From the IMG/VR virus record IMGVR_UViG_3300037486_000467, positions 1 through 64,000 of that record: DNA of 64,000 nucleotides; one strand, written 5' to 3'. The position numbers were made by a program, and so were the translations under genes. Below are positions 7,135-42,688 of this stretch, in pieces. Within the stretch, counting starts at the first letter, position 1. The number at the start of each line of letters is the position of its first letter. Under the pieces are notes generated by a model. It did not search any database. It was not told where the DNA came from and saw only the letters and a list, made by a program, of their open reading frames with translations. The stretch comes from a virus.

Positions 7135-7484
7135 AACTAGTTAGAGAACATATATACGAGAAATTTACTGAGCAATCTGATCCTGTACACGATCTTGGAA
7201 TAGGAATTGATGAAACAGTTGAACAATTTAAGAAGGAATTAAATGATGAATGGCCTACATTAACAGAGCGACATGAACATTTTCATTATTTTAAATCAGA
7301 ACCCAAATTCATTAGAATAGATGCGTATCCGCTTTCGCTATTAGGAGTGCAACATTTAAATCAAGCGCTTAAAAAGATTTATCCTAAATACAGAGATGTT
7401 TTAAAAATTACTCGTTTTGCTGGTTATAAAAATAATATAAGAAGAGGTAACGTTAATCAAGACGTCATTATTAAGATAAGATGA
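7131..7484 (+). CDS. Tagged single-module protein
   Basis: MKLVREHIYEKFTEQSDPVHDLGIG. Confidence 0.85.
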   Translation: MKLVREHIYEKFTEQSDPVHDLGIGIDETVEQFKKELNDEWPTLTERHEHFHYFKSEPKFIRIDAYPLSLLGVQHLNQALKKIYPKYRDVLKITRFAGYKNNIRRGNVNQDVIIKIR

Positions 7485-7837
7485 GAGCAAGACTAATATA
7501 TGAAAAGTTTACTGCAGATTCAGATCCAATACACGATTTGGGTATCGGAGTATTTAGTGTTCATAAATTTGAAAGTACAAAGGATATAGCCAAGTTTTTA
7601 GTAATTATTTTGCCAGCTATTTTAAGGACAAATGAAATTCCAGAAGATATTATACTCCATAAAAGATATCTTATGAATCCTAAATATCACGATAAAATGG
7701 ATGCGTATTTGAATACATATATTAAACTATACGATAAACATCTTGGACCTAAAGATACAAGATGGGACGTATATAATGAGTTATTTAAAATTTTATTAAA
7801 AATGGGATACTTACATAATGGAGAAGAATCTAGATGA
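7481..7837 (+). CDS. Tagged single-module protein (IPxDI family)
   Basis: Variant leader MRARLIYE; ILRTNEIPEDII. Confidence 0.85.
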   Translation: MRARLIYEKFTADSDPIHDLGIGVFSVHKFESTKDIAKFLVIILPAILRTNEIPEDIILHKRYLMNPKYHDKMDAYLNTYIKLYDKHLGPKDTRWDVYNELFKILLKMGYLHNGEESR

Positions 7838-9042
7838 AATTAGTTAGAGAACATATAAACGAGAAGTTTGCTGAAGATTCAGATCCAATAAAAGATATGG
7901 GTATTGGAATTACTGGGCCTAAAAAATTTTATAATAAAAAGGAACTTGTCGATCATATTATACATGCTCTCCCTCTTATATGTAATTCGGAAACAATTCC
8001 AGAAGATATTTTATATAGTATCGAACGAAACGATATACTTCCAGTAAACCTTTTTTATGAAATAATTAATTTTTTAGAAGAACATAATCAAGTAATGATT
8101 AGTAAAGATAAAAATTATACGTCAGTTAATTATGAACATGCAAGTGCATTTGATTTTAATTTTTCAAGATGGACAGTTGATCTTAGAGATAGATTACTAG
8201 AAATGGGATATGAGCAAAAACATAAAATTATTAAAGAACATATTAACGAGAAGTTTACCGATGATTCAGATCCTATAAGAGATCTAAGAATTGGCGCGTT
8301 TAAAAGAAAGATGACTTTTACAGATAAAGATGAATATATTTCTACATTATTATCTTTATTACCTCTTATTCTTGGAACTAAAGAAATTCCTAAAGATATT
8401 ATAGCTTCTTCTAACAATTATATATTTTCACCTTACTATCATACAATATCAGCTTACGTAGGTAATTATTTTACTTTTGAAGACAGTAAAAACGTAAAAG
8501 CATTTCATGACATTGAATGGTGTTTTCTTTTAAGAACAGAATTAAGAAGAATGGGATTTGAACATTTTACGTATAACGAAGATTTAAAATTAAATGTAAA
8601 TGAAAAGTTTTCTGGAGATTCTGATCCTATAACAGATATGGGAATTGGTACTATAGGTGCAATTAGGAATTTTTGTAAGCCATATATTAATCATATGGGT
8701 AAATCAGGCAGACAACATAAATTTAATTTAGATGTTATTGACGATTTATTGCTTATGTGTATTAAGGCGAAAAATCATGAATATGCCAAATATCTTTTAG
8801 ATCATGGCGCAGATGTACATTATGATGGTCCAAGTTCTACTCCTGGACTTGAAATTCCATTACGTTACGCATTCTTTTATAATGATATTAAAATGATAGA
8901 TTTGCTTATGAAATATGGCGCAGATATAAAAAAATCTATATATGATAATGAATTAGATATTGGAAGTCATAATACTCAAGGATTTAGAAAAACTACTATA
9001 AAACATGTATTAAATATATTACATGGTAAAATTTATAAATGA
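7834..9042 (+). CDS. Tagged 3-module protein (2 IPxDI modules plus an ankyrin module)
   Basis: Three tags; YAKYLLDHGADVH...PLRYAFFYNDIKMIDLLMKYGADI. Confidence 0.85.
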   Translation: MKLVREHINEKFAEDSDPIKDMGIGITGPKKFYNKKELVDHIIHALPLICNSETIPEDILYSIERNDILPVNLFYEIINFLEEHNQVMISKDKNYTSVNYEHASAFDFNFSRWTVDLRDRLLEMGYEQKHKIIKEHINEKFTDDSDPIRDLRIGAFKRKMTFTDKDEYISTLLSLLPLILGTKEIPKDIIASSNNYIFSPYYHTISAYVGNYFTFEDSKNVKAFHDIEWCFLLRTELRRMGFEHFTYNEDLKLNVNEKFSGDSDPITDMGIGTIGAIRNFCKPYINHMGKSGRQHKFNLDVIDDLLLMCIKAKNHEYAKYLLDHGADVHYDGPSSTPGLEIPLRYAFFYNDIKMIDLLMKYGADIKKSIYDNELDIGSHNTQGFRKTTIKHVLNILHGKIYK

Positions 9043-11522
9043 AACTAGTACAAGAACATATAAATGAAAAGTTTACATCAGAATCTGATCCAATAAAAGA
9101 TATGGGTATAGGTGTTAATGTTATTAAACTTGTTTGCGCCGCGGTATTATCAAATGATTCTACTGATTATAGAGATTTAACTCCAAAAACAATTAAAATG
9201 ATATTATCTAATTTTAGTAATTATTATGATTATAAAGAGATAGTATTTGCAGATGACGAAGATAACACCTATGGTACAGAAGATATGAATAACAAATATT
9301 TTGAATATCAAGGAAAAATATATCATATTGGAGAAGAAGAAACTTTAAACGAAAAGTTTACTGAAGATTCAGATTCTATAAAAGATATGGGTATAGGCGT
9401 GTATTCCAAAAGAGATTTTCCAGATTTACTATCTTTTCATGAATGGCTTTGTCTAGCAACACCCGTTATATGTAATATTAAAAAAGTTGAAGACATATTT
9501 AAATATGCAAATAAAAGACGCATAAATCAAACTTGTTATGATAAATTATTAGATTATAGTAATGAATATGTAACAATTAAAGGAGAACGTCTTGATAATA
9601 TAATATATCTTCAAAATTTTGTAGAATTAATTAAAGCAAAGGTTAAAGAACAAAAGAGTGTTAACGAAAAGTTTACTGAGGATTCAGATCCTATAAATGA
9701 TTTAGGCATAGGTATATTACATCGTCGCAAATTTGATACAGTTAAAGAAGCAGCAGAATTTTACGTAGAACATATAAACCTATTATCAAAAGGAATGTTT
9801 AAATCTAAAGAAGATTTAAAAGAATATCTTTCTGGAATTGGAAAAGGTAATTATTCAGAAACTAGAAGTTTGTTGCGTGCAGTTAAAAACTTTGTAGATG
9901 GATATGATGGAGAATTTAAAAACTTAGTTATTAAGGAAATAGATGAGTGGAATAAATTGCAATACGTTATAAGACTCAGAAATGCTATAAGAGAAATATT
10001 TGATTTTATAGATGAAGCGTTTACTGCAGATTCAGATCCAATCAGAGATATGGGTATTGGAATCTTTAAACGAAAAATGAATTTTACAAATCAAGAAGAA
10101 CTTGTTGATGCAATATTAACTTTAGTACCGTCTATTCTTGGAACAGATAAAATACCCGAAGATATTATTAATACTGATCATAATATTTTACTACCACATT
10201 ATTATCATACAATAAATTTATATCTTTATAAATATTTTACTTATAATAATAAGCTCGTATCTGAATCTAACACAGAATGGTGTCTTGCTTTAAGACAAAA
10301 ATTAAGAGACATAGGATTTGAACACCCTAAAAGTAGCATTGATAGATTACCAAGAGTGAATGAAAAGTTTACCGTAGATTCAGATCCTATACATGATATG
10401 GGAATTGGAGATGAGATAGAGTGGGAAAATTTAAAGGAAGGCGATATACTATACAATGATGATACTTTTATGATAGTTAAAGGAACTCCAAAAAAAGATG
10501 GCGATATATTAGAAATAATTACAATTCCATTTCCATTTGGTAATAATAAACAAGGTAGAGATACATTAGTAACTATCTTAAAAGGTAGACAACATTATGT
10601 TGATCTTTATTTAAATTCAGAACGTAGGAAGACACTTTCCAATTGGCAAAAAGAATTTAAAATTCTTCAACCACGAGAAATTAAAAAATATTTAAACGAA
10701 ACATTTACTTCAGATTCTGATCCAATACATGATTTAGGTATAGGTATATTATCAAGACTTAAACTATTTGATGTTCTTAGATGTAAAGAAAGAATAGAGG
10801 CACATCTTGAAACTGGGAAGTATAAATTTTATATTGAGCCAGGTGAATATTCTGTTATAATACAAAATATTGATTTTAAATCAAATGAAGTTGAACTTGT
10901 AGTAGCAACATATAGTCATTATCCACATCATTTTATGGAAGCAGATATACCGTATATAGGTAAAGAACATGTAAGTTTACCTATAGATAAATTCTCTGAT
11001 CACTTTGAAATCGTTAAGAGTGATGTTCTACAAGAGAAATTTACAGATGAAACTGATCCTATTGTAGATATGGGAATTGGAATGACTACTCATTTTAAAG
11101 AACTGATGAAATTATTTGGAAACGCAGATACAAAAAAATATATTTATAGCATAGTTATTGACGATTCAGAATTTATAGATTTTTGGTTTTATAGAAATAA
11201 TATTAAATTCTTACCTAAGAATGAAATTAAAGATTTATTTAAGTATGTTACAAATATTATTGATCAACTAGGATTTAGTTACATATTAGATGCCGTTAAA
11301 TTCATTGAGGGTTATTCAGGAGACGGATCGAAAGAAGAGGCGGATAATGATGAATTACCAAGAATGATAAGATTTAAAGTACATCCACAATTTCAAGAAA
11401 TATTTAAACTTGGACATTATAGAAGAAGCGCCAGCGCGTATGATTATAATTCTAATATAGATGATCAATTTTATTTTTATAGTAGTAATGATGATAACTA
11501 TCCATATAGAATAATTAGATGA
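9039..11522 (+). CDS. Tagged 7-module polyprotein
   Basis: Seven tag copies, preceded by INE/LNE/VNE/IDE/VNE/LNE/LQE. Confidence 0.9.
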   Translation: MKLVQEHINEKFTSESDPIKDMGIGVNVIKLVCAAVLSNDSTDYRDLTPKTIKMILSNFSNYYDYKEIVFADDEDNTYGTEDMNNKYFEYQGKIYHIGEEETLNEKFTEDSDSIKDMGIGVYSKRDFPDLLSFHEWLCLATPVICNIKKVEDIFKYANKRRINQTCYDKLLDYSNEYVTIKGERLDNIIYLQNFVELIKAKVKEQKSVNEKFTEDSDPINDLGIGILHRRKFDTVKEAAEFYVEHINLLSKGMFKSKEDLKEYLSGIGKGNYSETRSLLRAVKNFVDGYDGEFKNLVIKEIDEWNKLQYVIRLRNAIREIFDFIDEAFTADSDPIRDMGIGIFKRKMNFTNQEELVDAILTLVPSILGTDKIPEDIINTDHNILLPHYYHTINLYLYKYFTYNNKLVSESNTEWCLALRQKLRDIGFEHPKSSIDRLPRVNEKFTVDSDPIHDMGIGDEIEWENLKEGDILYNDDTFMIVKGTPKKDGDILEIITIPFPFGNNKQGRDTLVTILKGRQHYVDLYLNSERRKTLSNWQKEFKILQPREIKKYLNETFTSDSDPIHDLGIGILSRLKLFDVLRCKERIEAHLETGKYKFYIEPGEYSVIIQNIDFKSNEVELVVATYSHYPHHFMEADIPYIGKEHVSLPIDKFSDHFEIVKSDVLQEKFTDETDPIVDMGIGMTTHFKELMKLFGNADTKKYIYSIVIDDSEFIDFWFYRNNIKFLPKNEIKDLFKYVTNIIDQLGFSYILDAVKFIEGYSGDGSKEEADNDELPRMIRFKVHPQFQEIFKLGHYRRSASAYDYNSNIDDQFYFYSSNDDNYPYRIIR

Positions 11523-15366: not shown

Positions 15367-16135
15367 CGAGAAGTTTACTAACGATTCAGATCCTATACAT
15401 GATCTTGGAATAGGAATGCCTTATATATGGAAGACATTAAAAAGAGGTGATATATTAAGATTTAAGAAGACACTACGTATGAATGGTAGTCATGAAGATA
15501 CAACAGGAAACACATATCATAAAGGAACTTATATTGTTGTATTAAGAGTTAAAGCTGAGGAAAAAGGTGAATGGGGTGATAAAGAAATTACGTATGATTA
15601 TTATAATTCTAAAAACAAAAATTTTTTAGATAATCCACCCGTAGAATCTAGTAATGATTGGACATGGGATTATGAATTTTTTAATGAATTCTTTGAATTA
15701 GTCAGACGAGATTTGAAGGAATCCCTTAATGAAAAGTTTACTGAAGATTCAGATCCTGTACATGATCTTGGAATAGGATATATACACCTAATAGAAGATA
15801 GAATAAAGAAAGCTGGTTATAAAAATTGGCCAAAAAATAGTTATCTTATCGTATGTGCAATACTTGGAGAAAACGAATATATTAAACTTTTATTAGATGA
15901 CGGATGGAATGTACATGAAGATAATGAAGCAGCTTTAAAAAATGCGATTCTTATGAATCGATACGAAACAGTAAAAATATTATTAGAAGCAGGCGCAGAT
16001 GTAAATGTTGAACCTCACCATATAGCGAGAGATGTTTATGAAAAAACAGTATTACAATACGCAAAAGAAGAGGGCGACATTAGAATAGTTAAACTTATTT
16101 TGAAGTATATAGCTAAAAGTAAATTAAATAAATAA
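15341..16135 (+). CDS. Tagged 2-module protein (WKTLKRGD module plus ankyrin module)
   Basis: Two tags; ALKNAILMNRYETVKILLEAGADVN. Confidence 0.88.
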   Translation: MRIVREHINEKFTNDSDPIHDLGIGMPYIWKTLKRGDILRFKKTLRMNGSHEDTTGNTYHKGTYIVVLRVKAEEKGEWGDKEITYDYYNSKNKNFLDNPPVESSNDWTWDYEFFNEFFELVRRDLKESLNEKFTEDSDPVHDLGIGYIHLIEDRIKKAGYKNWPKNSYLIVCAILGENEYIKLLLDDGWNVHEDNEAALKNAILMNRYETVKILLEAGADVNVEPHHIARDVYEKTVLQYAKEEGDIRIVKLILKYIAKSKLNK

Positions 16136-17214
16136 TGATAGCTAAATTTATATACGAAAAGTTTACTGCAGATTCAGATCCAATATCAGATATGGGAATT
16201 GGTATATTGTCAAGACTTAAGCCATTTGATATTCTTAAATGTATCAAAAGAATAAAAGCATATATAGAAGATCAACCACTCGTTTATTTTTTCATAGAAC
16301 CAGGCTATTATTCTGTTATAAATAGTGTTGATTGGAAAAATAGCAATAGTGTTATTTTTAAGTTAGCAACATTTGATAAACCTCCAAGACATTTTGATGC
16401 ACATATTTTTTCATATGGTGGTGTGGAAATTGTAACTATGTCTCCAAATAAGTTTTTTAAGCATTTTGAAATTGTTAAAGACATTAATATTAACGAGAAG
16501 TTTACTGAATATTCAGATCCAATAGCTGACTTAGGAATTGGCGGGATAAAGTCTTTTCTAATTAAAGAACTTCAAAGAGAAGGAGGAACATCTTCAGTTG
16601 ATTCTTCAAGATGTTATTATGGTAATTCTAGATATACAGATGAAGCTTTTGTAGTCTATAAAGTTTTATCTATTATAGTAGAAATAGATAATTATACGCC
16701 TGCTGGTATGCAAGCTGCATTTCAACAAGCTTTAGATGACCCTCATTCATATCGTTCTAAAACTAGAAAAACATTGCGCATAAATAAAGTAATTGAAGCG
16801 TTGTCTAAATTCTTTTACATAGATGTTGTTGATCCTAATAAAACTAAAAAACTTAAAGAATCTTTAAATGAAAAGTTTACTGAAGACACAGATCCAATAG
16901 CTGATCTTGGAATTGGTGGGTTGAAATCTTTTCTAATTAAAGAACTTGATAGAGAAGGACATATAACTTCAATTGATTCTTCGAAAAATTATTATGGTAC
17001 TTCTAAATATCATGATGAAGCTTTTGTAGTCTTTAAAATTTTATCTCGTATTGCAAAAAATGATGATTATACACCTGCGGGTCTGCAAAGCGCATTTAAT
17101 TCCGAATTAAGCTTTCAATATCATTTTGATCCCGAAATTAAGAAGACTTTGCACGTAGATAAAATAATCGAAGCGCTGGCTAAATTCTTTTACGTAAATG
17201 TTGTTCGTCCCTGA
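16135..17214 (+). CDS. Tagged 3-module protein (modules 2 and 3 tandemly duplicated)
   Basis: GGIKSFLIKELQREG / GGLKSFLIKELDREG. Confidence 0.88.
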   Translation: MIAKFIYEKFTADSDPISDMGIGILSRLKPFDILKCIKRIKAYIEDQPLVYFFIEPGYYSVINSVDWKNSNSVIFKLATFDKPPRHFDAHIFSYGGVEIVTMSPNKFFKHFEIVKDININEKFTEYSDPIADLGIGGIKSFLIKELQREGGTSSVDSSRCYYGNSRYTDEAFVVYKVLSIIVEIDNYTPAGMQAAFQQALDDPHSYRSKTRKTLRINKVIEALSKFFYIDVVDPNKTKKLKESLNEKFTEDTDPIADLGIGGLKSFLIKELDREGHITSIDSSKNYYGTSKYHDEAFVVFKILSRIAKNDDYTPAGLQSAFNSELSFQYHFDPEIKKTLHVDKIIEALAKFFYVNVVRP

Positions 17215-17248: not shown

Positions 17249-18964
17249 ATGGACAATCTCTCTCAGAAACTCGAAGACTTCGCACATACTTTTCTAGATC
17301 CCGATTTCGTCTGGCGCCGCGGACAACGTGAAGCAATCCTTGAAATAGTCGAAGCGTACTCAAAGGGTACGAAAACTGTTATTCTTGACGCTCCAGTCGG
17401 GTCGGGAAAATCTTTGATAGGCATGGCCGTCGCGTGGCTACTAAATTCAGATAAAAAGAAAGGATACATACTCGCTTCTGAACTCTCGTTACAAGAACAG
17501 TACGAGAAAGACTTCTTCCGCTTTCATTTTAACTGGGGATCGATCAAAGGTATAGATAACTATCTTTGTAGCGACACTGGAGACAAGAATTCGCTTGGAA
17601 CTTGTCGTATTCGCAATAAGAATCCCCATACGATGCCTTGTTATGGCGAATGTCCTTACTTCTCAGCTCGATATATCGCGTCTAAGTCTCCGACATCTCT
17701 TCTTAACTACGCGTACTGGCTTATTATGCAAAATTACGTAAATAAGGGAGACGACGATGATCTTTTTCCTCCTCGGGACTTCACGATCTGCGACGAAGGA
17801 CACAAGATCCTTGATATCGTCCAGAATCACTACTCTCCGAGATTTGATGCGAAAACTATCGAAAAAATGCAGAAACTTACAGATTTTTTCACAAATTACA
17901 AAGTTTATGATCATTCGAGTGATCTACGTGCACTAAAAACTGCTTTAAGTAAGCTATATAAGGACGAGAATCAAGATTCTCTACATGAAACTCTGTTAAA
18001 CGTAGAGGAATTACTCGAAGCGTATCTCGAGTCTGTAAAAGTGCTTCGAAAAAAGGTGAGCGATGAGTTTCCGCGGAGTGAGCCACCTAAAGAATGGTTG
18101 CATGCTCTTCGATTAGCGGATTGGGTGAAGGATTTGCACTGCAAAGTAGAGGATTACAACGACATCATAGATCAGACCAGCACACGCAATTTGGTCAAAA
18201 ATCCAAGCGGTTCTGAGGAGCTGACTTTCAACTGTCTGCAAGAATCGTACATGATGAGTAAGTACTTTCACCAGTGGACGGGATTCACGCTGCTGATGAG
18301 CGCGACGTTCTCAGATCCTACGAGTTATCTGAGAAGTATTGCGCTAACAGGAGCAAAGTACATTAAAATGGATAGTAACTTCGACTTCAAGAATTCGCCT
18401 ATAATGTTCTACAATCGGAGACGAATGACGTACAATCAAATGGAGCGAAATTTGCCGTGGCTCTATTCGAAGATTGATGAGATACTTGAGACTCATAAGA
18501 ACGAGAATGGAATCATACATACTGCAAGCTATGACCTCGCGCAGAAGATCTATGAGAACATTCCGAAGCGTCATAGGCGTCGTCTCTTAGTCTATAACGG
18601 AACAGAAGAAAAGAGAGCAGAGTTAGATAAGCTGAAGAGACAAAAGAATAGAGTACTTATGGGGCCGAGTCTGTTAGAAGGACTTGACTTGAAAGACGAT
18701 TGGAGTCGATTCGCTATCTTTGCAAAGGTTCCTTACTTATCTCTAAATGATCGATTTGTTGCAGCGAAGTTGAAAATTAATCCTGAATGGTATCGATGGA
18801 AAGCGATCATCAATGTATTACAAGGCACGGGAAGAAGCGTGAGAAGCGAGACCGACTGGGCAATTACGTACATGCTCGATGGCGCGCTGGCAGATTTGAT
18901 ACATAACAATCGCAAGAGTTTCCCTATTGAATTTATTTCAAGACTCCAGATAATTGACGAATAA
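17249..18964 (+). CDS. DinG/Rad3(XPD)-family SF2 DNA helicase with Fe-S cluster cysteines
   Basis: Q motif RRGQ, Walker A DAPVGSGKS, four Cys (NYLC, GTC, PCYGECPY), ICDEGH, LMSAT, EGLDL, QGTGRSVRSETDWA. Confidence 0.92.
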   Translation: MDNLSQKLEDFAHTFLDPDFVWRRGQREAILEIVEAYSKGTKTVILDAPVGSGKSLIGMAVAWLLNSDKKKGYILASELSLQEQYEKDFFRFHFNWGSIKGIDNYLCSDTGDKNSLGTCRIRNKNPHTMPCYGECPYFSARYIASKSPTSLLNYAYWLIMQNYVNKGDDDDLFPPRDFTICDEGHKILDIVQNHYSPRFDAKTIEKMQKLTDFFTNYKVYDHSSDLRALKTALSKLYKDENQDSLHETLLNVEELLEAYLESVKVLRKKVSDEFPRSEPPKEWLHALRLADWVKDLHCKVEDYNDIIDQTSTRNLVKNPSGSEELTFNCLQESYMMSKYFHQWTGFTLLMSATFSDPTSYLRSIALTGAKYIKMDSNFDFKNSPIMFYNRRRMTYNQMERNLPWLYSKIDEILETHKNENGIIHTASYDLAQKIYENIPKRHRRRLLVYNGTEEKRAELDKLKRQKNRVLMGPSLLEGLDLKDDWSRFAIFAKVPYLSLNDRFVAAKLKINPEWYRWKAIINVLQGTGRSVRSETDWAITYMLDGALADLIHNNRKSFPIEFISRLQIIDE

Positions 18965-26579: not shown

Positions 26580-27218
26580 ATGGAAAACATAAACGAAAAT
26601 AATATTCAAGAAGAATATAAACCTTTAAATGAAAGTGTTCAGATAGGAGACGCAGTTAAACTTGATGGGCAGAAGGGATTTGTTATTGGACAAATTGATG
26701 GAAAAGTAATTATTCAGGTTCAGGGAAATACAAGTCTTGTAACTCCTGACAAAGTTAAAGAATATGGAAAAAAACCAGATCTTCTTACTGTTCCTCATAT
26801 GAAATTTGATGAAGAAACTCAAAAACTTTTATTTGAACAATTTGTTAAGTGCGGAGTTTTTATGGGTAATGTTCCTATTAAAATGAGTGATTGTTATGTT
26901 AAATACAATCAATGGGAAAAAGCAATGCCTGATCAACAAATAAAGGTTCTTATAGAAGGCAATACTGTATTTATGCCAAAATCACAGGTTAGAATATTTG
27001 AAGATTTAAATAATTTTGCAAATCCAGATAACTATATTCCGGGCGTTATTGTTGATGAACCAACTGAAATTGCTCTTGAAAATGTTTTAATTAACGCAAT
27101 AGATTTTTCAAATGCAATTGGAGATGCAGATTCTGTTCAAATTATTCGTAAAGCTCCAGATGGTACGCAAGAAATGCAGACAATGCCAAGAGCAGCGTTA
27201 AGAACATTATCAGTATAA
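26580..27218 (+). CDS. Hypothetical protein with KOW/SH3-like segments
   Basis: VQIGDAVKLDGQKGFVIG; N-terminal INE/LNE sites. Confidence 0.65.
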   Translation: MENINENNIQEEYKPLNESVQIGDAVKLDGQKGFVIGQIDGKVIIQVQGNTSLVTPDKVKEYGKKPDLLTVPHMKFDEETQKLLFEQFVKCGVFMGNVPIKMSDCYVKYNQWEKAMPDQQIKVLIEGNTVFMPKSQVRIFEDLNNFANPDNYIPGVIVDEPTEIALENVLINAIDFSNAIGDADSVQIIRKAPDGTQEMQTMPRAALRTLSV

Positions 27219-28239: not shown

Positions 28240-28827
28240 ATGCTAAACGATACTTATAAACGTTGGCACAAACCAAATAAAAATCCAGATTCTAAAATAA
28301 AACAGGGTTACTACAAAGTTCAAAATACTGATAAATATATAGGTGATCCTAATTTAGTTATTTATAGAAGTTCCTGGGAACATGCATTTTGTCGTTGGTG
28401 CGATTTCTCTCCCTCAATAATACATTGGAGTTCTGAACCTATAAAAATTCCCTATTATGATAGAGTATCAAAACTTGATGAATGTAAAAGATATGGACTT
28501 AATCCCAATGATCCCAAAAATTGGGTAATTAAAAATTATAACACTGATTTCTGGGTAGAAATACAAAAGCAAGATAATACAGTAGATCGAATGTTTATCG
28601 AAATAAAGCCTTCGAATAAATTACTAAAGCCAGTTCCGCCATCGCAAGGAGCTTCTTTAAAGGAACAAAGAAGATTTAATATAGATGCAAAAGAATATTT
28701 GATAAATGAGGCTAAATGGGCAGCAATGAATGCGTATGCTAAACAAAACAATGTAAAGTTTTATGTGTTCACAGAGAAGACATTAAGCTCACTTATAGGA
28801 CGTTTTTGGGCTCCAAATAATGAATAA
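28240..28827 (+). CDS. T4 gp4-like head completion nuclease (TnsA-like fold)
   Basis: KYIGDPNLVIYRSSWE, WSSEPIKIPY, TDFW, IEIKP, INEAKWAA, FYVFTE. Confidence 0.88.
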   Translation: MLNDTYKRWHKPNKNPDSKIKQGYYKVQNTDKYIGDPNLVIYRSSWEHAFCRWCDFSPSIIHWSSEPIKIPYYDRVSKLDECKRYGLNPNDPKNWVIKNYNTDFWVEIQKQDNTVDRMFIEIKPSNKLLKPVPPSQGASLKEQRRFNIDAKEYLINEAKWAAMNAYAKQNNVKFYVFTEKTLSSLIGRFWAPNNE

Positions 28828-30416: not shown

Positions 30417-32210
30417 ATGGCCGGCTTCGGACTAAGAAACCTCGATAAAAGATCAGCATCTTTTTTAGATAATATACAACGTAACATACGTTATCTCAGC
30501 ATCCTTGGGATGAAATGGGATGAAAAAGTAATAAAACAATCTCGTGCCATAGGTATTAGTGAAATGACTGAAGACTCTATGTATAGTCTTTATGGTCAAC
30601 ATCAACTATATTCAGGCGCAGATATTAATCAAAAAGAATTTATTGCATTCTTTGATAAAGAATATCCTACAAGAAGAGATTTCTTGAGAAGATTTGCAAT
30701 GAATGGAGAAATTGAACATGTTATAGAAGTTATAGCAGATGAAACTATCATTCAAGATGATGCTAATTTCTTTGCTTATCCCAATACTAAGAAATTAAAA
30801 TCTGTTCTTAAAGCTGAAAAAGCAAAAGAAATTGTAGATGATCTTAATGAATCATTCAAAAAGGTTTATTATGCCTTTGGCTTTAATAGTGGCCATGATG
30901 GATGGCATTATGCTAAAAAATTCTTAATTGATGGTTTCCTTTCTTTTGAAATTATTTATGACGGTGAAGGTTCAGATCCAGCTAAACATATATTAGGATT
31001 TAAAGAACTTGATCCAGTTACTCTTGAGCCTGAAATGAGAAAAGACGAAGAAGGAAATGAGTATAGAATGTGGATACAATTTAGGGGAGATTCAGAAAAA
31101 CAAAGAGAATTAGTTGACGGAAATATAATTTATATCTCTTGGGCAAGAGGAAATTTTATATCTCGTCTATCATATGTTGAAAGACTTGTTAGAGCATTCA
31201 ACATGCTTAGAACAATGGAGAATTCACGTATTATTTGGAATGTTATGAATTCTCAACAACGTATGAAAATAGTTGTTCCTATTGGAACTCAATCAGAGGT
31301 TAAAGCAAGAACTCGTCTTTCAGAACTTCGAGCTATGTATAAAGAAGATGTTACAATTGATTATCAAAGTGGAGAAGTTACAATAAATGGTACGCCAAAT
31401 TTCTCTTTCGCTAAACAGTATATTTTTCCTGTAAAAGATGGCCAACAAGTTGATGTAAATTCATTTGCTCCAGCAGGTTGGGATTTGTCAGGAACAATGG
31501 CTCTCGATTATTTTTGGAAAAGATTTATTATTGAAACAAAAGTTCCTAAAGATAGATTTACAACAACAGGAGAAGAAGGCGGTCAGGGCAGCAATTGGTC
31601 TAGTGGTGGTGAAGGTATTGCTAGAGAAGAAATTAGGTTTGCTTATTTTATTAATCGTATTCGTTCTATTCTTCAAGAAATATTGTTAAAGCCTACATGG
31701 ATACAATTTTGTTTAAAACATCCTGAATTTGCACAAGATAAAGCATTACGAGGCGCTATAGGTCTTGAATTTGTTGAAGAAAACTTATTTACAGAAGCCA
31801 AAAAACGTGATATAGCAGAAAAGGGTGCTGCAATAGTTACTACACTTATGGGCATAAATCAACCCGAAGTTGATAATGAAGGTGTAGTAAATAATGACGG
31901 AATGTACTTTGATCCTAAATTCTTAGTTGAAAAGTATATGGATTATACTGATGAAGATCTTAAACTTAATGAAAAATATAAGAGAGAAAGAAGAGAACAA
32001 TTAACTCGTATTGCAGATAGCATCAAGCGTATCAATGCAATTAAAGGCACAGGAGAAGAAGGAGAAGCTGGCGCAGGTGGTGACATGACTGGCTTAGGAG
32101 GAATGGAAATGGGCGGTGGCGAAATAGCCGGAGGAGCTCCAACAGAACCTGGCGCAGAAGGCGAAACCGGTGAAGAAGAAGCGGGCGGCACAACTGAATT
32201 AGGAGTTTAA
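30417..32210 (+). CDS. T4 gp20-like portal protein
   Basis: EIEHVIEVIADE, KKFLIDG, ELDP, SYVERLVRAFNMLRTMENSRIIW, TKVPKDR, IAREEIRFAYFINRIR. Confidence 0.9.
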   Translation: MAGFGLRNLDKRSASFLDNIQRNIRYLSILGMKWDEKVIKQSRAIGISEMTEDSMYSLYGQHQLYSGADINQKEFIAFFDKEYPTRRDFLRRFAMNGEIEHVIEVIADETIIQDDANFFAYPNTKKLKSVLKAEKAKEIVDDLNESFKKVYYAFGFNSGHDGWHYAKKFLIDGFLSFEIIYDGEGSDPAKHILGFKELDPVTLEPEMRKDEEGNEYRMWIQFRGDSEKQRELVDGNIIYISWARGNFISRLSYVERLVRAFNMLRTMENSRIIWNVMNSQQRMKIVVPIGTQSEVKARTRLSELRAMYKEDVTIDYQSGEVTINGTPNFSFAKQYIFPVKDGQQVDVNSFAPAGWDLSGTMALDYFWKRFIIETKVPKDRFTTTGEEGGQGSNWSSGGEGIAREEIRFAYFINRIRSILQEILLKPTWIQFCLKHPEFAQDKALRGAIGLEFVEENLFTEAKKRDIAEKGAAIVTTLMGINQPEVDNEGVVNNDGMYFDPKFLVEKYMDYTDEDLKLNEKYKRERREQLTRIADSIKRINAIKGTGEEGEAGAGGDMTGLGGMEMGGGEIAGGAPTEPGAEGETGEEEAGGTTELGV

Positions 32211-32253: not shown

Positions 32254-32613
32254 ATGAACACAACTTTGATTTCTATTATTGGCAGCCTCGTTGTAATTTG
32301 CATTGTAGTATGGATAATTGCATACAGAAATAAGAAAAAAAGAAGAGAAGAATCAGAACGCGAAGATGCCGCACGTCTTGAAAATAGACTTAATGAAATA
32401 ATTAAACAGGAACGTGAAGAGCAAGAATTTGCTGAAAGAGAACGTAAAGAACAAAAGCGTATTGAAGAAGAACATCGTGCAAAGCTTGAGCAAGAACTTA
32501 AAGAAAGCGCTGAAGCAGAAAGTAAAAAGGCTACTGAAGTTAAATTAGCTCCAGTAAAAAAAGCAAAGAGTGGGAAAAAGCCAGTAAAGAAAACTGTTAA
32601 AAAAAACAATTAA
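32254..32613 (+). CDS. Membrane-anchored charged coiled-coil protein with Lys-rich tail
   Basis: N-terminal TM helix, E/R/K helix, basic C-terminus. Confidence 0.65.
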   Translation: MNTTLISIIGSLVVICIVVWIIAYRNKKKRREESEREDAARLENRLNEIIKQEREEQEFAERERKEQKRIEEEHRAKLEQELKESAEAESKKATEVKLAPVKKAKSGKKPVKKTVKKNN

Positions 32614-32629
32614 AAATAAATAAATAATT

Positions 32630-32887
32630 ATGAAAGAATTTTTTAAAAAACTTTGGGAAAAAGTAAAAGCATGGGCAACTCTAACTGCTTGGCCTTGGCT
32701 TAAGAAGAGTTGGATGCAAATAGTGAATATTGTTGTAGTTGCAATTGCATGGGATAAATTAAGTGATCTGGGAACAGCTCCAGGTGTAGAAACTATAACA
32801 GGATTATGGTTATTTCTCCTTCTTGCTTATTATATTTTCTGGAAACTTTTAGGAGCAGAAAAATTATTCAAAAAGAAGGAAGTTTAA
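32630..32887 (+). CDS. Small 2-TM membrane protein
   Basis: Two hydrophobic segments, basic termini. Confidence 0.65.
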   Translation: MKEFFKKLWEKVKAWATLTAWPWLKKSWMQIVNIVVVAIAWDKLSDLGTAPGVETITGLWLFLLLAYYIFWKLLGAEKLFKKKEV

Positions 32888-32957
32888 CATTAGATTAACA
32901 AATATATAATATCAAATTATGTAATTTATATTATATTGTTATATAGTTCTTTAAAAT

Positions 32958-33200
32958 ATTGAGAAATGCTCTACGGAGCTAGTTATAGAGTAGGTATGCA
33001 ACACCGCGGTTCGACCCCGCGCACCTCCACAAAAGTTTGTAGCGAAATCTCGGTCTCTTTTCAAAAAGCCGAACTTCAATAGGGGGTGACCTGGCTTTGA
33101 CTGCATATTGAGGGTGTTAATGAACGTCTCAACACGTCAAATAAACGACGCAAACATTTATGAAATGCAAATGGCTGCTTAAGAAGCACTCATTTACAGG
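32958..33200 (+). ncRNA. ssrA: Circularly permuted (two-piece) tmRNA gene
   Basis: T-arm CGCGG-TTCGACC-CCGCG (33005-33021) and 3' acceptor strand CACCTCC-A (33022-33029) lie upstream of the 5' strand GGGGGTG-ACCTGGCTTTGAC (from 33082); 7-bp acceptor stem with G3-U70; GGTATGCA pairs with TGCATATT; tag frame after ATAAAC reads DANIYEMQMAA* (33147-33182). Outer boundaries approximate. Confidence 0.9.
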
Positions 33201-33206
33201 AAACTG

Positions 33207-33235
33207 GCCGGTCGCCTAAGGTACCGGCTTTTTTT
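33207..33235 (+). terminator. Intrinsic terminator after tmRNA
   Basis: GCCGGT-N10-ACCGGC followed by T7. Confidence 0.85.
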
Positions 33236-33284
33236 ATCTTTCGTTATTAGCAACGGGGATATATAAATAAAATCATACAATTAA

Positions 33285-34751
33285 ATGCAAGCCAAATTAG
33301 TGCATGAAGATTTAAATGAAAAATTTACTGATGAATCTGATCCTATAAAAGATTTAGGAATAGGAGAAGGCACTCTTCATAATTTAAAACGGGGTGATAT
33401 AATAAAAGTAAAATATAATTGTAGTATTGATAAAAATAAAAGATTGGTATTTTCATTTAAGTTGGCTACATATTTTAAACCTACAATGGATTGGATATAT
33501 AAAGGCTTATATTTAATAGTAGATAAAGTAGAATATAAAGATGATAAAGTTTTTATTATAGGTTTTAACGGTAGTAATAATTTAGTTGTAGCTAAAGATC
33601 GAAAACGTGTACTTTTTATTGAATATCCTGATTTTCAACCGCCTATTCCTAAAGGAGATTTTTGGGTTTTTGAAAAAAATATTGACAAAATGTTAGAATT
33701 TGTTAAAGATAATAAAATAAAAGAATCTTTAAATGAAAAATTCCAAGATATCTCGGATCCCATTAAAGATATGGGAATTGGATATCCCCAATGTCTTGTA
33801 GGAACAAAAATATACATACCATTTGGTTATGAATTAAGTGTATATAATAAACTATATAAAAGATCTAACTCTGAAAATGAAAATGGAAAGATTTGGACAA
33901 TTAACTCTGCTATTAGAGAAGGCGAATTTATTAAAGTTACGTTAAATAATTTTACTGTATTTTTAACCGAAAAACAACTTAAGTTATTTTCAAAAAAATA
34001 TCAAAATTTAATAAAGGAAGATTTAAATGAAAAATTTACAGAAGAATCTGATCCAATCCACGATTTAGGCATAGGGTATTTTGAAATTGTTAAAAAACCT
34101 CGTAATGTATTTTATTTCATTGAAAGAGGCCCAAATTATGTTGAAGGTGGAAAGCCAACTACATACGTGTATTCTATGGATAAAGGAAACGTTTACAGAA
34201 CACACCCTAATTTATATGCTCACCAAGAATTAAGATCAAATTCTAACGCCTTTAATAAAGGAAATACTGATAAAATGGCTATTCCAAATGATTTTAATAA
34301 AGCATATGCATTCATAATGGATCATTATATTAAGAAGAGAAAAAGAGCTAGATTAAGAGAATCTTTAAATGAAAAATTTACAGAAACATCTGATGCAATT
34401 GTAGATATGGGTATAGGATTTAATCCTCAAAAAACCAAAACTAAATCATTTAAGATACTATTATTCATTAATTCAAGAGGAGAAGATGGCGCATCTTTAT
34501 TAGAAATACAGCATTTTATTTATGTAGAATTAAACGGAGGTTCTGAACAACAATTTTGGGAAACTAAAGAAGACAGGTATTGGCCCGGTAAGAAACGAAT
34601 AACTCGAGGATATTGGTGTACAAATTTATTAGGATCACATAGATGGCCGGGATTACTTCATAAATATTGCAAAAAGAATGAAAAGGGTAAATGGGTTATT
34701 AAAAGGTGGCCTAAGTTTGAAGAAAATCTTTATGATTTCGACAAAAAATAA
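33285..34751 (+). CDS. Tagged 4-module polyprotein outside the main array
   Basis: Four E(S/D)LNEKF.....D.I.D.GIG copies; late-promoter motif upstream. Confidence 0.88.
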   Translation: MQAKLVHEDLNEKFTDESDPIKDLGIGEGTLHNLKRGDIIKVKYNCSIDKNKRLVFSFKLATYFKPTMDWIYKGLYLIVDKVEYKDDKVFIIGFNGSNNLVVAKDRKRVLFIEYPDFQPPIPKGDFWVFEKNIDKMLEFVKDNKIKESLNEKFQDISDPIKDMGIGYPQCLVGTKIYIPFGYELSVYNKLYKRSNSENENGKIWTINSAIREGEFIKVTLNNFTVFLTEKQLKLFSKKYQNLIKEDLNEKFTEESDPIHDLGIGYFEIVKKPRNVFYFIERGPNYVEGGKPTTYVYSMDKGNVYRTHPNLYAHQELRSNSNAFNKGNTDKMAIPNDFNKAYAFIMDHYIKKRKRARLRESLNEKFTETSDAIVDMGIGFNPQKTKTKSFKILLFINSRGEDGASLLEIQHFIYVELNGGSEQQFWETKEDRYWPGKKRITRGYWCTNLLGSHRWPGLLHKYCKKNEKGKWVIKRWPKFEENLYDFDKK

Positions 34752-34786
34752 ATAAATATATAGAATATATAAAATAAAGTATAATT

Positions 34787-35362
34787 ATGAAAGCAGGACA
34801 ATTTAACATCAATGATTACTTAGAAAAACTCTACGAAGCATCAGGAGATGGACAACTTCCAGATCCAGAAGGTATGATAATTCCTGAAGAAAATCAAAAA
34901 GCATATCAATGGTTGAAGAAAGAATATCAAAAAGCGCAAACTGAGGTTAAAGTTGAAATTAATATGGGTGGTGCTAAATTTGAACCTGGATATGATCTTC
35001 AAACAGATCTTGATTCAGTTAAAGATTTCAAACCAGGCATGTTTGGAGAAGTAAAAACAGCTGATAACGAAGGCGAACCCAAAAAACCTGCAAATCTTGA
35101 TACTAAAAAAGAAGTTCCAAACTTTGCGAAAGGCGAAGGAGAAAAAAAGGAAGAAAAAACTGGTGAAAAACCAAATTTTTCGAAAACCAAAGCAGCTTCA
35201 GGTGATATAAAAGATAAAGAACACGAAGCCGGAGAATCTAAAGAAAAAGAAGAAAAGGAAGAACACGAAGCCGGAGAATCTGAAGAAAAGGAAGAAAAAG
35301 AAGAAAGCAAAAAAGGCGATACTGAAGTTAAAAAAATAGATCTTAAAACCAAAAAGAAATGA
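34787..35362 (+). CDS. Glu/Lys-rich hypothetical protein (possible head core protein)
   Basis: Late-promoter motif; duplicated EHEAGES(K/E)EKEEKE. Confidence 0.6.
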   Translation: MKAGQFNINDYLEKLYEASGDGQLPDPEGMIIPEENQKAYQWLKKEYQKAQTEVKVEINMGGAKFEPGYDLQTDLDSVKDFKPGMFGEVKTADNEGEPKKPANLDTKKEVPNFAKGEGEKKEEKTGEKPNFSKTKAASGDIKDKEHEAGESKEKEEKEEHEAGESEEKEEKEESKKGDTEVKKIDLKTKKK

Positions 35363-35640
35363 CAATAAAAAATAATTCTTTGGGCGATATATTAAATACA
35401 GCTAAAAATAAACAAACTACTCCCGAAGAAGAAAAAAATGAACCAGAAAAAGGAGATCCAACTTTAGATTTCCTTAATTCTATTATAGTTCTTGCAGTAT
35501 TTTTAATAAAATCTTTTGTATTTGGATATGCTTTAAAAATACTTCTTCATAACGATTGGAAATTTTTTGGCATAATATGCATGGGCCTTGCCATTAATTT
35601 TTTATTCCAATATTTTTACGGCATAATTCATAAAAATTAA
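35359..35640 (+). CDS. Small 2-TM membrane protein
   Basis: Two hydrophobic helices; ATGA overlap. Confidence 0.6.
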   Translation: MTIKNNSLGDILNTAKNKQTTPEEEKNEPEKGDPTLDFLNSIIVLAVFLIKSFVFGYALKILLHNDWKFFGIICMGLAINFLFQYFYGIIHKN

Positions 35641-35686
35641 AACAAATTTCATACTATATAATAAAAACATATTAAAAACTAAAAAT

Positions 35687-36361
35687 ATGGGAAAATTAAT
35701 ATGCCTCTCGGGCTTAGACGCAAGTGGTAAAAGCACTCAAATAGATCTAATAAAAAAATATTTTGAAGAAAATAATATAAAATATACATATCTACATTTT
35801 CCTATATACGAAGATAATGAAGCTGGCAAAATAATTTCATCTTATCTTCGTGGAGAATACGGAGATATTAACGAAGTAGATCCTATTTTTGTTGCAAATA
35901 TATATGCAATGAATAGATATTTATATCTTCCAGAATTAAATAAACAACTTTTAGATAATGATGTAGTTTTATTAGATCGTTATGTATTTTGTAATATGGC
36001 TTATCAGGGCGCAAAATATGATACAGACGCGCAATCTCAAATAATGAGAGACTGGATAAATGAATTTGAATTTGGATTTCTAGAACTTCCATATCCAGAT
36101 TTAAATATATTTATTGATACACCATTAGATTTAATAGAAAGTAGACTTTCAGATAAAAGAGAAGGAAAAGATAGAAGATATTTAAATGGAAGATCTGATA
36201 TTCACGAAATGAACATAGAATTTCAAAAGAAAGTAAGAGAAAATTATTTGTGGTTAAATACTTATGAAAATTATTTAATTGTTTCTCCTGAAAAATTAAC
36301 GCCAGAAGAAATATTTAAAAAATATGAAAAAGATTTATTTAGAGCATTGTTAATAAAATAA
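35687..36361 (+). CDS. tmk: Thymidylate (dTMP) kinase
   Basis: P-loop SGLDASGKST, HFP, LLDRY, AYQG, LPYPDL, DIHE. Confidence 0.92.
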   Translation: MGKLICLSGLDASGKSTQIDLIKKYFEENNIKYTYLHFPIYEDNEAGKIISSYLRGEYGDINEVDPIFVANIYAMNRYLYLPELNKQLLDNDVVLLDRYVFCNMAYQGAKYDTDAQSQIMRDWINEFEFGFLELPYPDLNIFIDTPLDLIESRLSDKREGKDRRYLNGRSDIHEMNIEFQKKVRENYLWLNTYENYLIVSPEKLTPEEIFKKYEKDLFRALLIK

Positions 36362-36364
36362 TTT

Positions 36365-36655
36365 ATGATAAATAGCGGCGGTTTTCAATATAATAAAAAA
36401 ACAAAATTAGTTAGAAAAGTATATACTGACAATATTAATACATATCCTAGTCATAAAATATTGTATACACTAACAAAATCTCATTCACCTTCAACCATTG
36501 TATTTTTAGAAGATAGAGAAGATCCGTGGCTTATTCTTGTTAAAACATATAGAACAAAAACGGGAGTAATTACTAATTCGAGCATAATTATTAAACCAGA
36601 TATTGAAACACACTTATCTTATGCACAATCAAACGGGTTTCAATTAAAAAAATAA
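36365..36655 (+). CDS. Hypothetical protein
   Basis: ORF in operon orientation. Confidence 0.55.
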   Translation: MINSGGFQYNKKTKLVRKVYTDNINTYPSHKILYTLTKSHSPSTIVFLEDREDPWLILVKTYRTKTGVITNSSIIIKPDIETHLSYAQSNGFQLKK

Positions 36656-36783
36656 CAGCAATTTAATTTTATTAAAAATAATTAACACCAAACCGTATTA
36701 TATTGGATATATACAAAAACTTTTTTAAAAATTATATATATAAAATTAAATAAAATAAAAACTTAAACTAAAATAAAAAAATT

Positions 36784-37074
36784 ATGGCAGATCAAATTCC
36801 AAACGTAGCAAAAGTAGATGCAACACAGAAAGTTGAAACAAACGCTTATGTGCCAACTTATAAAATTAAACCAGACTTTAAGAAAGCTCTTCTTCAATCA
36901 ATTGGAGATAGACCATTTAATGAAATAGCAGGTCTTATTCAAGCAATTGATGTTGAAGTGATGGATCATCAAACTCTTACACAAATTGTAAATGCTATTG
37001 GGCAATTTCCATTCGTAAGAGTAGAGCAACTTATGAAAAATATTTCAAATCTTGTTGAACAGGTAATTGAATAA
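36784..37074 (+). CDS. Hypothetical protein with internal PF.E(I/V) repeat
   Basis: IGDRPFNEIAGLI / IGQFPFVRVEQLM; A-rich leader. Confidence 0.7.
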   Translation: MADQIPNVAKVDATQKVETNAYVPTYKIKPDFKKALLQSIGDRPFNEIAGLIQAIDVEVMDHQTLTQIVNAIGQFPFVRVEQLMKNISNLVEQVIE

Positions 37075-37105
37075 TCATTTCATTTTTCTTAAACTAATTA
37101 ATTTT

Positions 37106-37732
37106 ATGAGAAAAAAAAGACACAGTATTCAAAATATAGCATTAGATTTTATAGAAAATAAAAACAATAAAACGTTTAGCGTTTTAATGAAACGTTTAAA
37201 ACCAGGACTTTTATCATTTGCATATAAATACGTTAAAGATAAAGATTTGGCAAATGAAGTTGCTTCTCAAACATTTATTATCCTTTGGGAAAAAATAGAT
37301 CAATATAACAATAAATTTAATTTTTCAACATGGGTATATGCAATAGCAAAAAATGAAGCATTAGGAATAATTAGAAATGGAAACAAAAATTTATCATTTG
37401 ATAAATTTTCAAATAATCATTCTAAGCTGCTTCAAATATATAATCCGGTATTTAATATGAATATTGAAACTATCGCGCCTATAGGAGAAGAATTAACGCA
37501 ACAATTATATGACGCATCTATTTTAGCAATAAATGAATTAGAAGAGCCTTATAAAACTGTTATGGTTGAAAGAGAAGTTAATCAAAAACATTTAACTGAT
37601 ATTGCAGATTATTTAGGATGGAATTTATCTACAGTTAAAACACGACTTCGTAAAGCAAGAAAAGATATTGCTGAAATATTATATAAAAAATATCCAAGCG
37701 AAGTAGATTCTTATTTTGGAAATGAAGAATAA
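37106..37732 (+). CDS. ECF-type sigma-70 family RNA polymerase sigma factor
   Basis: Region 2 DLANEVASQTFIILWEKIDQY...FSTWVYAIAKN; region 4 DIADYLGWNLSTVKTRLRKAR; start moved to ATG 37106. Confidence 0.9.
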   Translation: MRKKRHSIQNIALDFIENKNNKTFSVLMKRLKPGLLSFAYKYVKDKDLANEVASQTFIILWEKIDQYNNKFNFSTWVYAIAKNEALGIIRNGNKNLSFDKFSNNHSKLLQIYNPVFNMNIETIAPIGEELTQQLYDASILAINELEEPYKTVMVEREVNQKHLTDIADYLGWNLSTVKTRLRKARKDIAEILYKKYPSEVDSYFGNEE

Positions 37733-37734
37733 AG

Positions 37735-38217
37735 ATGAAAGCAAATGAATGGTTTAAACCTCGAAATTGGGGATGGATTAAAGTTTATCGAGATTTTGAA
37801 AATTTTAATGATTGGAAAAAAATTATTAAAAGAGAAGAAAAAAATGTAGATTCTAAGTTCAATAAATGGAATTTACAACATACAAAATTATACGATATTT
37901 TCGTTACAATCTCTTTAGATGAAGAAGATGCGCAATTGCCAGAAATCATTAAGCGTACAAAAGTATTAGAATCTTTAAATCCTATTAATCGCTATTTAGA
38001 TGAGGAACTTGGTTTTGCTGAATGCCTTAGTTGTGAGTTCAATCAATTTGAAGATGATAAAGGTATACCCACATTATCTTATTTAATTGTTTATAGATTC
38101 ATTTTTAATAAGTTTTCTATAATATGGTTATTAAAATTTATTACAATAACGGGAGCATTAACCTATCTTGCTATAAGGCTTGATGATATAATCAAATGGA
38201 TTTTCAATTCGATATAA
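37735..38217 (+). CDS. Hypothetical protein with C-terminal TM helix
   Basis: ORF in operon; hydrophobic C-terminus. Confidence 0.65.
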   Translation: MKANEWFKPRNWGWIKVYRDFENFNDWKKIIKREEKNVDSKFNKWNLQHTKLYDIFVTISLDEEDAQLPEIIKRTKVLESLNPINRYLDEELGFAECLSCEFNQFEDDKGIPTLSYLIVYRFIFNKFSIIWLLKFITITGALTYLAIRLDDIIKWIFNSI

Positions 38218-38972: not shown

Positions 38973-39027
38973 TTTTTTAAAACTATTTTTTGTAAATGCC
39001 ATAAAATATAAAATAATACATAAAAAT

Positions 39028-39651: not shown

Positions 39652-39671
39652 CCTTTTATATATTTCATTTT

Positions 39672-39698
39672 AAGAGGCCCAAAACTTGGGCCTCTTTT
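39672..39698 (+). terminator. Intrinsic terminator
   Basis: AAGAGGCCCAA-AAC-TTGGGCCTCTT-TT. Confidence 0.8.
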
Positions 39699-39750
39699 GA
39701 TAATATAAATATAAATATCTAGAGATATATAAAAACAAAAGACACTAATT

Positions 39751-40415: not shown

Positions 40416-40435
40416 ATAAATAAAATAAATAAAGA

Positions 40436-41650: not shown

Positions 41651-41719
41651 AAATGAAATTAGAAAAATCTGGTATCCATATTAACCCCGGAGAACATCAA
41701 AATTTTGATAGAATTTAAG

Positions 41720-41741
41720 AAGGAGCGTAAGCTCCTTTTTT
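41720..41741 (+). terminator. Intrinsic terminator
   Basis: AAGGAGC-GTAA-GCTCCTT-TTTT. Confidence 0.8.
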
Positions 41742-41768
41742 ATTGAAATATATAAAATAAAATAATAG

Positions 41769-42665: not shown

Positions 42666-42688
42666 ATAAATAAAATAATTATGTAAAT

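Follow-up and report, generated by a model that had tools for sequence, protein, structure and literature searches.

A seven-module open reading frame with a T4-like leader and a prohead-protease-like motif at every joint: a candidate cargo polyprotein of a phage with a T4-type portal

Introduction

The internal proteins of phage T4 (IPII and IPIII, also IPI and Alt) are basic, small and variable cargo carried behind a conserved leader of 10 residues, the eighth Ile and the tenth Glu, which is processed by gp21. Passages of a published account (PMC9026906) state that the first 10 residues of IPIII are enough for packaging, that residues 4 and 7 chiefly govern targeting and residues 8 and 10 govern processing, and that Asp at position 10 stops processing, not targeting. 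Here we describe an open reading frame (ORF) of seven small modules, at 9039–11522 of the IMG/VR virus record IMGVR_UViG_3300037486_000467, which we compare with this and other known systems. The stretch that was analysed, “the window,” is the first 64 kb (positions 1 to 64,000) of this 83,640-bp viral contig, which is judged to be about 21% complete; the window has a G+C content of 29.5% and zero N.

Several prohead-protease cuts after Glu within one polypeptide are found in T4 gp22, gp67, and gp68 and in the inner-body or ejection proteins of phiKZ, 201phi2-1, and SPN3US. T4 gp22 holds 20 [ILV]xE motifs, and passages of the same account give 201phi2-1 a total of 29 cleavage sites, spread over 19 proteins, and describe phiKZ propeptides with redundant sites (PMC9026906). 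In these proteins the cuts mostly strip propeptides or destroy scaffold, whereas the products proposed here would be folded modules of uniform size and N-terminus, as in viral polyproteins.

The third comparison is with the polyvalent proteins (Iyer, Burroughs, Anand, de Souza, Aravind 2017, PMC5512222). As described in passages of that paper, they are chains of 2–15 unrelated domains in phages and conjugative elements, are predicted to be capsid cargo that is delivered alongside the DNA, and are proposed to be processed into separate products by their own metallopeptidase domains, at joints that are not uniform. The ORF described here likewise combines several unrelated domains, seven modules, in a single phage polypeptide; it differs in having the same site and tag at every joint, and none of the polyvalent-protein marker domains (metallopeptidase, MuF, enzymatic effector) was found in it with Pfam and PHROG.

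Small modules chained through a uniform joint of protease site plus tag are not described for any of these three systems. Compared with the T4 internal proteins, which are single units and only 3–4 in number, as many as seven modules (10 in database relatives) form a chain here, each joint of which carries a cut motif; a second conserved element, a tag of 15 residues, would remain on each mature piece; the modules number 58 on the contig and upwards of 66 in a complete relative; and they are acidic. With viral polyproteins the locus shares a conserved protease-recognition motif at the junctions (7/7 in the ORF, 28/28 on the contig, 267/280 in database chains). We take the arrangement to be a variant form of the T4 internal-protein system, and the sequence comparisons set out below partly, and indirectly, support the idea that its joints are cut.

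Results and discussion

The seven-module ORF

The ORF (9039–11522, plus strand) is an open frame of 827 amino acids (aa), 97.0 kDa, with no Pfam family above cut-off and no meaningful PHROG. It contains seven copies of a 15-residue tag, x-F-T-x-[DE]-[ST]-D-[PS]-I-x-D-[ML]-G-I-G, starting at residues 11, 106, 211, 327, 443, 555, and 667. Each is immediately preceded by [ILV]-x-E, exactly as a preliminary description made from the letters alone had claimed: the tripeptides are, in order, INE, LNE, VNE, IDE, VNE, LNE, and LQE, and the tags that follow them begin KFT, KFT, KFT, AFT, KFT, TFT, and KFT. The leader MKLVQEHINE, which carries site 1 (I8-N9-E10), and tag 1 (residues 11–25) occupy 9039–9113. 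The six internal joints, each taken together with its tag and all on the plus strand, lie at 9345–9398 (L103-N104-E105, tag 2), 9660–9713 (V208-N209-E210, tag 3), 10008–10061 (I324-D325-E326, tag 4), 10356–10409 (V440-N441-E442, tag 5), 10692–10745 (L552-N553-E554, tag 6), and 11028–11081 (L664-Q665-E666, tag 7).

We lean, with reserve, towards reading this ORF as the precursor of seven small modules that a prohead protease would cut apart at each [ILV]-x-E joint. In the proposed sequence of events, the 10-residue leader would act like the targeting sequence of T4 IPII/IPIII and bring the chain into the prohead's scaffolding core; the gp21-family protease of the lineage, once activated, would then cut behind the Glu that ends the leader and behind that of every exposed joint; and seven pieces of 11.0–19.2 kDa with K/A/T-F-T N-termini would result, the same mature form as is expected from the single-module genes. 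The pieces would stay in the head and presumably enter the host with the DNA. Packaging, cleavage and host delivery are steps that we infer. The predicted fragments measure, in order, 11.0, 12.4, 13.6, 13.5, 13.2, 13.0, and 19.2 kDa, which comes close to the 12–15 kDa suggested earlier; as also suggested, they are predicted to begin with (K/A/T)FT at all seven tags. The accompanying argument, that the pieces must be small to leave through the tail, is weak and not needed, for passages of PMC9026906 describe the delivery of large IPIII fusions by T4.

An in-frame ATG, GTG, or TTG is lacking in the 15 codons upstream of five of the six internal joints, the sole start-type codon near an internal joint being the GTG at residue 440 (joint 5). 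Separate modules could thus arise at those five joints only post-translationally, and internal translation starts were rejected as the source of single modules.

Tags and tripeptides on the contig and in databases

A profile built from 47 tags found by regular expression was used to search the contig and detects 58 tags over its 83.6 kb. Of these, 53 belong to an array of tag-bearing genes (100–22862, plus strand) with ORFs of 1–7 modules, mostly linked by ATGA start/stop overlaps. A DNA helicase gene (17249–18964; phrog_2488, E = 8e-108) interrupts the array, which is therefore not purely a structural or late block. Among the tags outside it are those of a four-tag ORF (33285–34751, plus strand) about 1 kb downstream of the portal gene.

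The tripeptide stands directly before x-F in 53/53 tags of the array, so that the earlier statement about every array tag holds, and in 4/5 tags outside it, giving 57/58 for the whole contig. INE (21), LNE (12), IYE (10), VNE (5), and IDE (4) are the common forms among the 57 sites, with LQE, ITE, LYE, LTE, and LVE found once each. This is far above the background in module bodies, 110 [ILV]xE per 6448 residues; however, the tags are homologous copies, so the question is not one of chance, but whether the tripeptide upstream of the tag has a function of its own. The conserved residues are spelled by several synonymous codons (Glu by GAA 38 times and GAG 18 times, Pro by four codons, Gly by three to four), which indicates that selection acts at the protein level. 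The sole tag without a site (43707–44351, plus strand) reads ...HLNQYYL-KFT, with Gln for Glu and three residues inserted. The protein in question, 214 aa and encoded outside the array, is possibly a natural uncut variant.

Database chains follow the same rule. All 84 hits, of 454–1448 aa, bear 2–10 tags at a median spacing of 127.5 residues, and 81 were analysed further after dropping three that come from this contig. Their internal tags have [ILV]xE in rigid register in 256/280 cases. The 24 exceptions were read by eye: 11 have an [ILV]xE displaced by a small insertion, seven have Met at P3, five have T, A, or K at P3, and one is without an adjacent Glu. Counting the displaced ones, [ILV]xE is present at 267/280 internal joints, and the Glu is kept in 279/280.

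No description of such tag-jointed chains was found in the literature, where tables of huge-phage papers might hold such proteins unnoticed. In the searchable literature, from which supplementary tables are excluded, the tag string DMGIG leads to just two papers, on GIGYF proteins. The passages of the Jug-phage paper (PMC12880540) that mention a prohead protease contain no such tag family. A single-module protein used as a tblastn query gave zero matches.

The leader, and the tripeptide as a separate element

In tags that come first in an ORF the whole 10-residue leader is conserved, as M-K-L-V-R/K-E-H-I-N/Y-E with 2–4 bits per position; on the contig (n = 30, rigid register) M is found at −10 in 23/30, I/L at −3 in 28/30, and E at −1 in 28/30. 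The internal tags (n = 28) have E at −1 and [ILV] at −3 in 28/28 and N at −2 in 21/28, their information being 0.5–1.4 bits at −14 to −4 and 2.3, 2.8, and 3.7 bits at −3, −2, and −1. This decay of the leader at the joints means that its first seven residues matter only at the N-terminus and its last three everywhere.

Furthermore, relatives keep the tripeptide even where 2–3 residues are inserted between it and the tag (INEQLSKFT, IDERMGFT, IYEALGFT, VNERLGFT), and a leader occurs in a protein from which the KFT...GIG tag is absent. The latter is a lysozyme-domain protein (41769–42665, plus strand, TTG start; Pfam Phage_lysozyme, E = 5.5e-22) with KLVREHINE at its start, then SLNESLNES and a hydrophobic stretch; its homologue in the complete relative retains LLQESLNESL behind another N-terminal sequence. 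The protein could serve as an ejection protein that is packaged in the head and degrades the wall, or as an endolysin anchored in the membrane. Judged on these sequences, leader decay, tolerance of insertions, and a leader without a tag all say yes to the question of whether the tripeptide is a separate element.

The N-terminus of T4 IPII and IPIII is MKTYQEFIAE (record AF158101). MKLVREHINE is of equal length and has M1, K2, E6, I8, and E10 in common with it, and the split of our leader, with seven residues that count at the N-terminus alone and three that count at every tag, matches by analogy the division of the T4 leader into targeting and processing residues.

Two further groups of N-termini were noted. 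A second leader class of eight residues, M-[KR]-A-x-[FLR]-[IV]-x-E (MRARLIYE, MIAKFIYE), ends in [ILV]-x-E right before the tag and is found at 7481–7837 and 16135–17214 and in the related loci L002, L005, L008, L020, L029, and L041. Untagged proteins with [IL]-N-E in their first 25 residues are encoded at 26580–27218, 44366–46264, 46302–47960, 62677–63042 (minus strand), and contig positions 68239–68910 (minus strand); their N-termini are MENINE...PLNE, ...TKINE, MKKLVPESIEE...NLNE, MKKLVSENLNE, and MKINE, and they may be further substrates with short propeptides.

Structure model and exchange of modules

An AlphaFold2 model of the whole 827-aa ORF, based on an alignment of 59 sequences, has a mean predicted local distance difference test score (pLDDT) of 58.5 and a predicted template modelling score of 0.33; modules 2, 3, and 4 are confidently modelled, with block means of 70–97. 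The segments with pLDDT below 50 include 1–12, 86–104, 207–210, 319–328, 431–443, 515–556, and 567–668. Six of the seven P1 Glu residues are located in such a segment, and the seventh adjoins one: at joint 2, L103 and N104 are within segment 86–104. Joints 3–5 are sharp dips between confident domains, joint 3 in segment 207–210 between two confident modules, joint 4 in 319–328, directly at the end of a long modelled helix (H292–323), and joint 5 in 431–443. The C-terminal third is poorly modelled, which makes joint 6 (in 515–556) and joint 7 (in 567–668, a region poorly modelled in general) barely informative. The tags are the best-conserved columns of the alignment, yet are less confidently modelled than the bodies (block means 46–79), a combination that, as far as the model goes, fits a linear motif better than a part of the fold. 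With the whole model as query, no match in the PDB was found at E ≤ 0.001.

Modules are exchanged between chains. When 115 module bodies from the contig and its relatives were clustered by BLASTP at E ≤ 1e-5, no two modules of the 827-aa ORF shared a cluster, and modules 2, 4, 5, 6, and 7 had family members at other positions of other chains. The families of modules 4 and 7 include single-module genes, namely the ORF at 7481–7837 and a gene of the complete relative. The six- and eight-tag ORFs of two relatives (G001 and G002) have no BLASTP-level similarity to modules of the 827-aa ORF, which implies that chains are quickly reshuffled. The fourth module of the ORF at 33285–34751 can be followed at a syntenic locus that lies about 1–2 kb downstream of the portal: seven relatives encode it as a standalone protein, and two genomes have it fused, this contig (four modules) and L001 (two modules). 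Modules thus interchange between fused and standalone forms.

Protease, scaffold, and capsid protein of the lineage

The portal gene (30417–32210, plus strand; Pfam Portal_T4, E = 5.6e-51) is of the T4 type, and this portal type marks the phage, by sequence, as having T4-like head assembly. The preliminary description had expected a gp21-like protease elsewhere in the genome. Peptidase_S77 (PF03420) has zero matches on the 83,640-bp contig, which carries little weight since this is about 21% of a genome, and protease, scaffold, and capsid protein are all missing among the ORFs at 32254–43705 after the portal (PHROGs, Pfam). We therefore turn to the relatives, 31 portal-related loci, among which the only complete tag-bearing genome covered is G001, which has 405,016 bp and terminal repeats and whose portal is 82% identical to ours. 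It carries at least 66 tag matches together with a Peptidase_S77 match over the curated cut-off (E = 2.1e-17); protease and tags coexist, then, within one complete genome.

The S77 match is the N-terminus of a 781-aa protein (L036:8659–11004, minus strand), the remainder of which is long, helical, and scaffold-like, and whose gene adjoins that of a 590-aa Gp23-family capsid protein. The 781-aa protein aligns to the T4 gp21 structure 5jbl (E = 1.5e-4): the His in its ELDHP pairs with that in ELNHP of wild-type T4, and the Ser in its S-S-R aligns to A-S-R of T4. The fusion of protease and scaffold is conserved in 19 aligned relatives, at 699–844 aa, where T4 has gp21 and gp22 as separate genes.

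The motif found before the tags recurs in both of these head proteins. The protease-scaffold protein has 10 [ILV]NE against 1.2 expected, about 8-fold (0/2000 residue shuffles reach 10), and 29 [ILV]xE against 15.7 expected from shuffles; of the 19 aligned relatives, 17 keep the scaffold site at reference position 183, 19 the one at 466, and 14 the one at 750. The capsid protein of the G001 lineage reads ...HALNE/AAMGG (the slash marks the presumed cut), with L-N-E at residues 41–43, and this site is conserved in 27/27 relatives, as L-N-E, L-T-E, or L-Y-E in 20 close ones and I-N-E in seven at about 30% identity. The P2 residues N, T, and Y are common to the capsid site and the sites before the tags. 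T4 gp23 has FLTE/AEIGG with the tripeptide at residues 63–65, and its solved mature chains begin at residue 66. The capsid query segment aligns at 26–100 of the mature gp23 chain, which is 91–165 of the full-length chain, the phmmer alignment with gp23 begins only at residue 89, and BLASTP of the N-termini covers residues 8–18; a residue-level equivalence of the two sites was therefore rejected, as they cannot be aligned and are comparable in position only.

A 436-kb genome, 95% complete, from a distant capsid clade (G007, locus L073) has the capsid I-N-E and zero tag matches, which makes the tag system younger than the protease motif and clade-specific.

Alternative explanations

The reading that competes most directly with cleavage is that the chains are never cut: the 18-residue stretch [ILV]NE-KFTxDSDPIxDMGIG would be a single linear motif for binding or localisation that serves within the infected cell, for instance by docking modules on a common phage or host partner, and the tandem fusions would work intact and need not be in the virion. 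We regard this as unlikely, though worth serious thought, and much of what counts against cleavage would suit it. Conservation is unbroken from −3 to +14, with Lys at P1′ in 54/57 and Phe nearly fixed, and the tripeptide could be just the start of such a binding motif, a doubt that arises because a T4-type protease would not need a near-fixed Lys at P1′. The predicted fragments of the 827-aa ORF are acidic, with isoelectric points of 4.4–6.8. In G001 the tags turn up throughout the genome, and in the window they are mixed with replication genes (the helicase within the array; a thymidylate kinase, a sigma factor, and an exonuclease nearby, from Pfam/PHROG scans). Cut motifs are not depleted inside module bodies ([ILV]NE 5 vs. 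6.9 expected, [ILV]xE 110 vs. 103), which is neutral in that mature T4 gp23 likewise keeps [ILV]xE motifs, and the T4-type late promoter word TATAAATA is not enriched (23 found vs. 25.2 expected), a count that is uninformative in DNA of only 29.5% GC. Cleavage is further weakened by the possibility that the low joint pLDDT stems in part from a poor alignment, by the purely positional likeness of the capsid site to that of gp23, and by the fact that no cultured relative was found with the portal in GenBank. Only 1/31 loci has tags within 4 kb of the capsid-protein gene, and the idea that tag genes are conserved neighbours of the protease and capsid-protein genes was rejected on that count. An uncut binding motif, however, would hardly lead one to expect that the first seven leader residues decay at internal joints while the last three persist, that the tripeptide outlives insertions parting it from the tag, that the same tripeptide with the same P2 alternatives recurs in the capsid protein and scaffold of the lineage, that the leader is as long as the T4 targeting sequence and agrees with it at the key positions, or that it occurs tagless on the lysozyme-domain protein.

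If the chains are packaged, it could still be that only the leader or some of the joints are cut, the internal [ILV]xE being gene-fusion relics of former leaders that are kept for the needs of the tag or shielded from the protease. Some internal joints do resemble whole leaders (KKLIKEYINE at 769, HKIIKEHINE at 8221), the ATGA overlaps between array genes mean that a small change could fuse neighbours, joint 4 is right at the end of a long helix in the model, and uncut motifs persist in mature gp23. A Glu kept at −1 in 28/28 internal tags here and 279/280 in database chains is nevertheless too strict for decaying relics, and most joints are in short low-confidence linkers. Given a chain inside an active prohead, cutting of the exposed joints is likely, because passages of PMC9026906 describe gp21-type proteases as having very few further determinants besides the motif, so that they would be expected to cut exposed sites there; packaging is the weaker link. 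Partial cutting is, in our judgement, distinctly improbable. More improbable by far is that the joints are cut by another enzyme or elsewhere, be it a cytoplasmic Glu-specific peptidase of host or phage or the DUF2201-type metallopeptidase at 44366–46264. Such an enzyme would be at hand, since the window encodes this metallopeptidase-VWA protein and a MoxR-type AAA ATPase, and no S77 protease was found on this contig; the motif, on the other hand, equals that of T4-type prohead proteases and recurs in the scaffold and capsid protein of the lineage, and the complete relative has an S77-family protease. For cleavage by the prohead protease, as put forward in the preliminary description, there now speak, indirectly, the protease of the relatives, the motif in their capsid protein and scaffold, the T4-like leader, the low-confidence joints, and the switching between fused and standalone modules.

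Other features of the window

In GenBank the nearest portals, about 40% identical (maximum about 41%), belong to Lak megaphages and to an uncultured record of 462 kb. Upstream of the portal gene, a head-closure (connector) protein is encoded at 28240–28827 (plus strand; phrog_218, E = 7.5e-38). A single copy of TATAAATA at 33262–33269 immediately precedes the four-tag ORF that follows the portal.

A 636-aa protein (48478–50388) carries a type IX secretion C-terminal sorting domain (Por_Secre_tail, E = 3.5e-9), which, as a sequence match, points to a Bacteroidota host. A gene pair encodes a 632-aa protein with a DUF2201-type metallopeptidase and a VWA domain (44366–46264) and a 552-aa MoxR-like AAA ATPase (46302–47960), and a minus-strand ORF of 3206 aa occupies 51727–61347.

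Biological implications

Beyond the single ORF, one may tentatively picture a plug-in cargo system, a broader idea that we hold to be possible and rather doubtful: at least 60 effector modules per genome of about 400 kb, one T4-like leader that would address a whole chain, a prohead protease that would yield uniform pieces of 11–19 kDa, and a second tag of 15 residues that would act after cutting, for instance in ordered exit or as an address on the host side. Such a system would be the first polyprotein strategy of a tailed phage in which the head protease processes functional products. If the ORF is cut as proposed, the head-maturation protease would be a polyprotein-processing enzyme, a strategy otherwise known from eukaryotic viruses. 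Dozens of ready-made, rapidly shuffled proteins would then be delivered together with the DNA, and huge phages would diversify their anti-host weapons of the first minute by swapping modules at a standard joint. The arrangement would also be a natural design for loading a capsid with multiple proteins from one gene.

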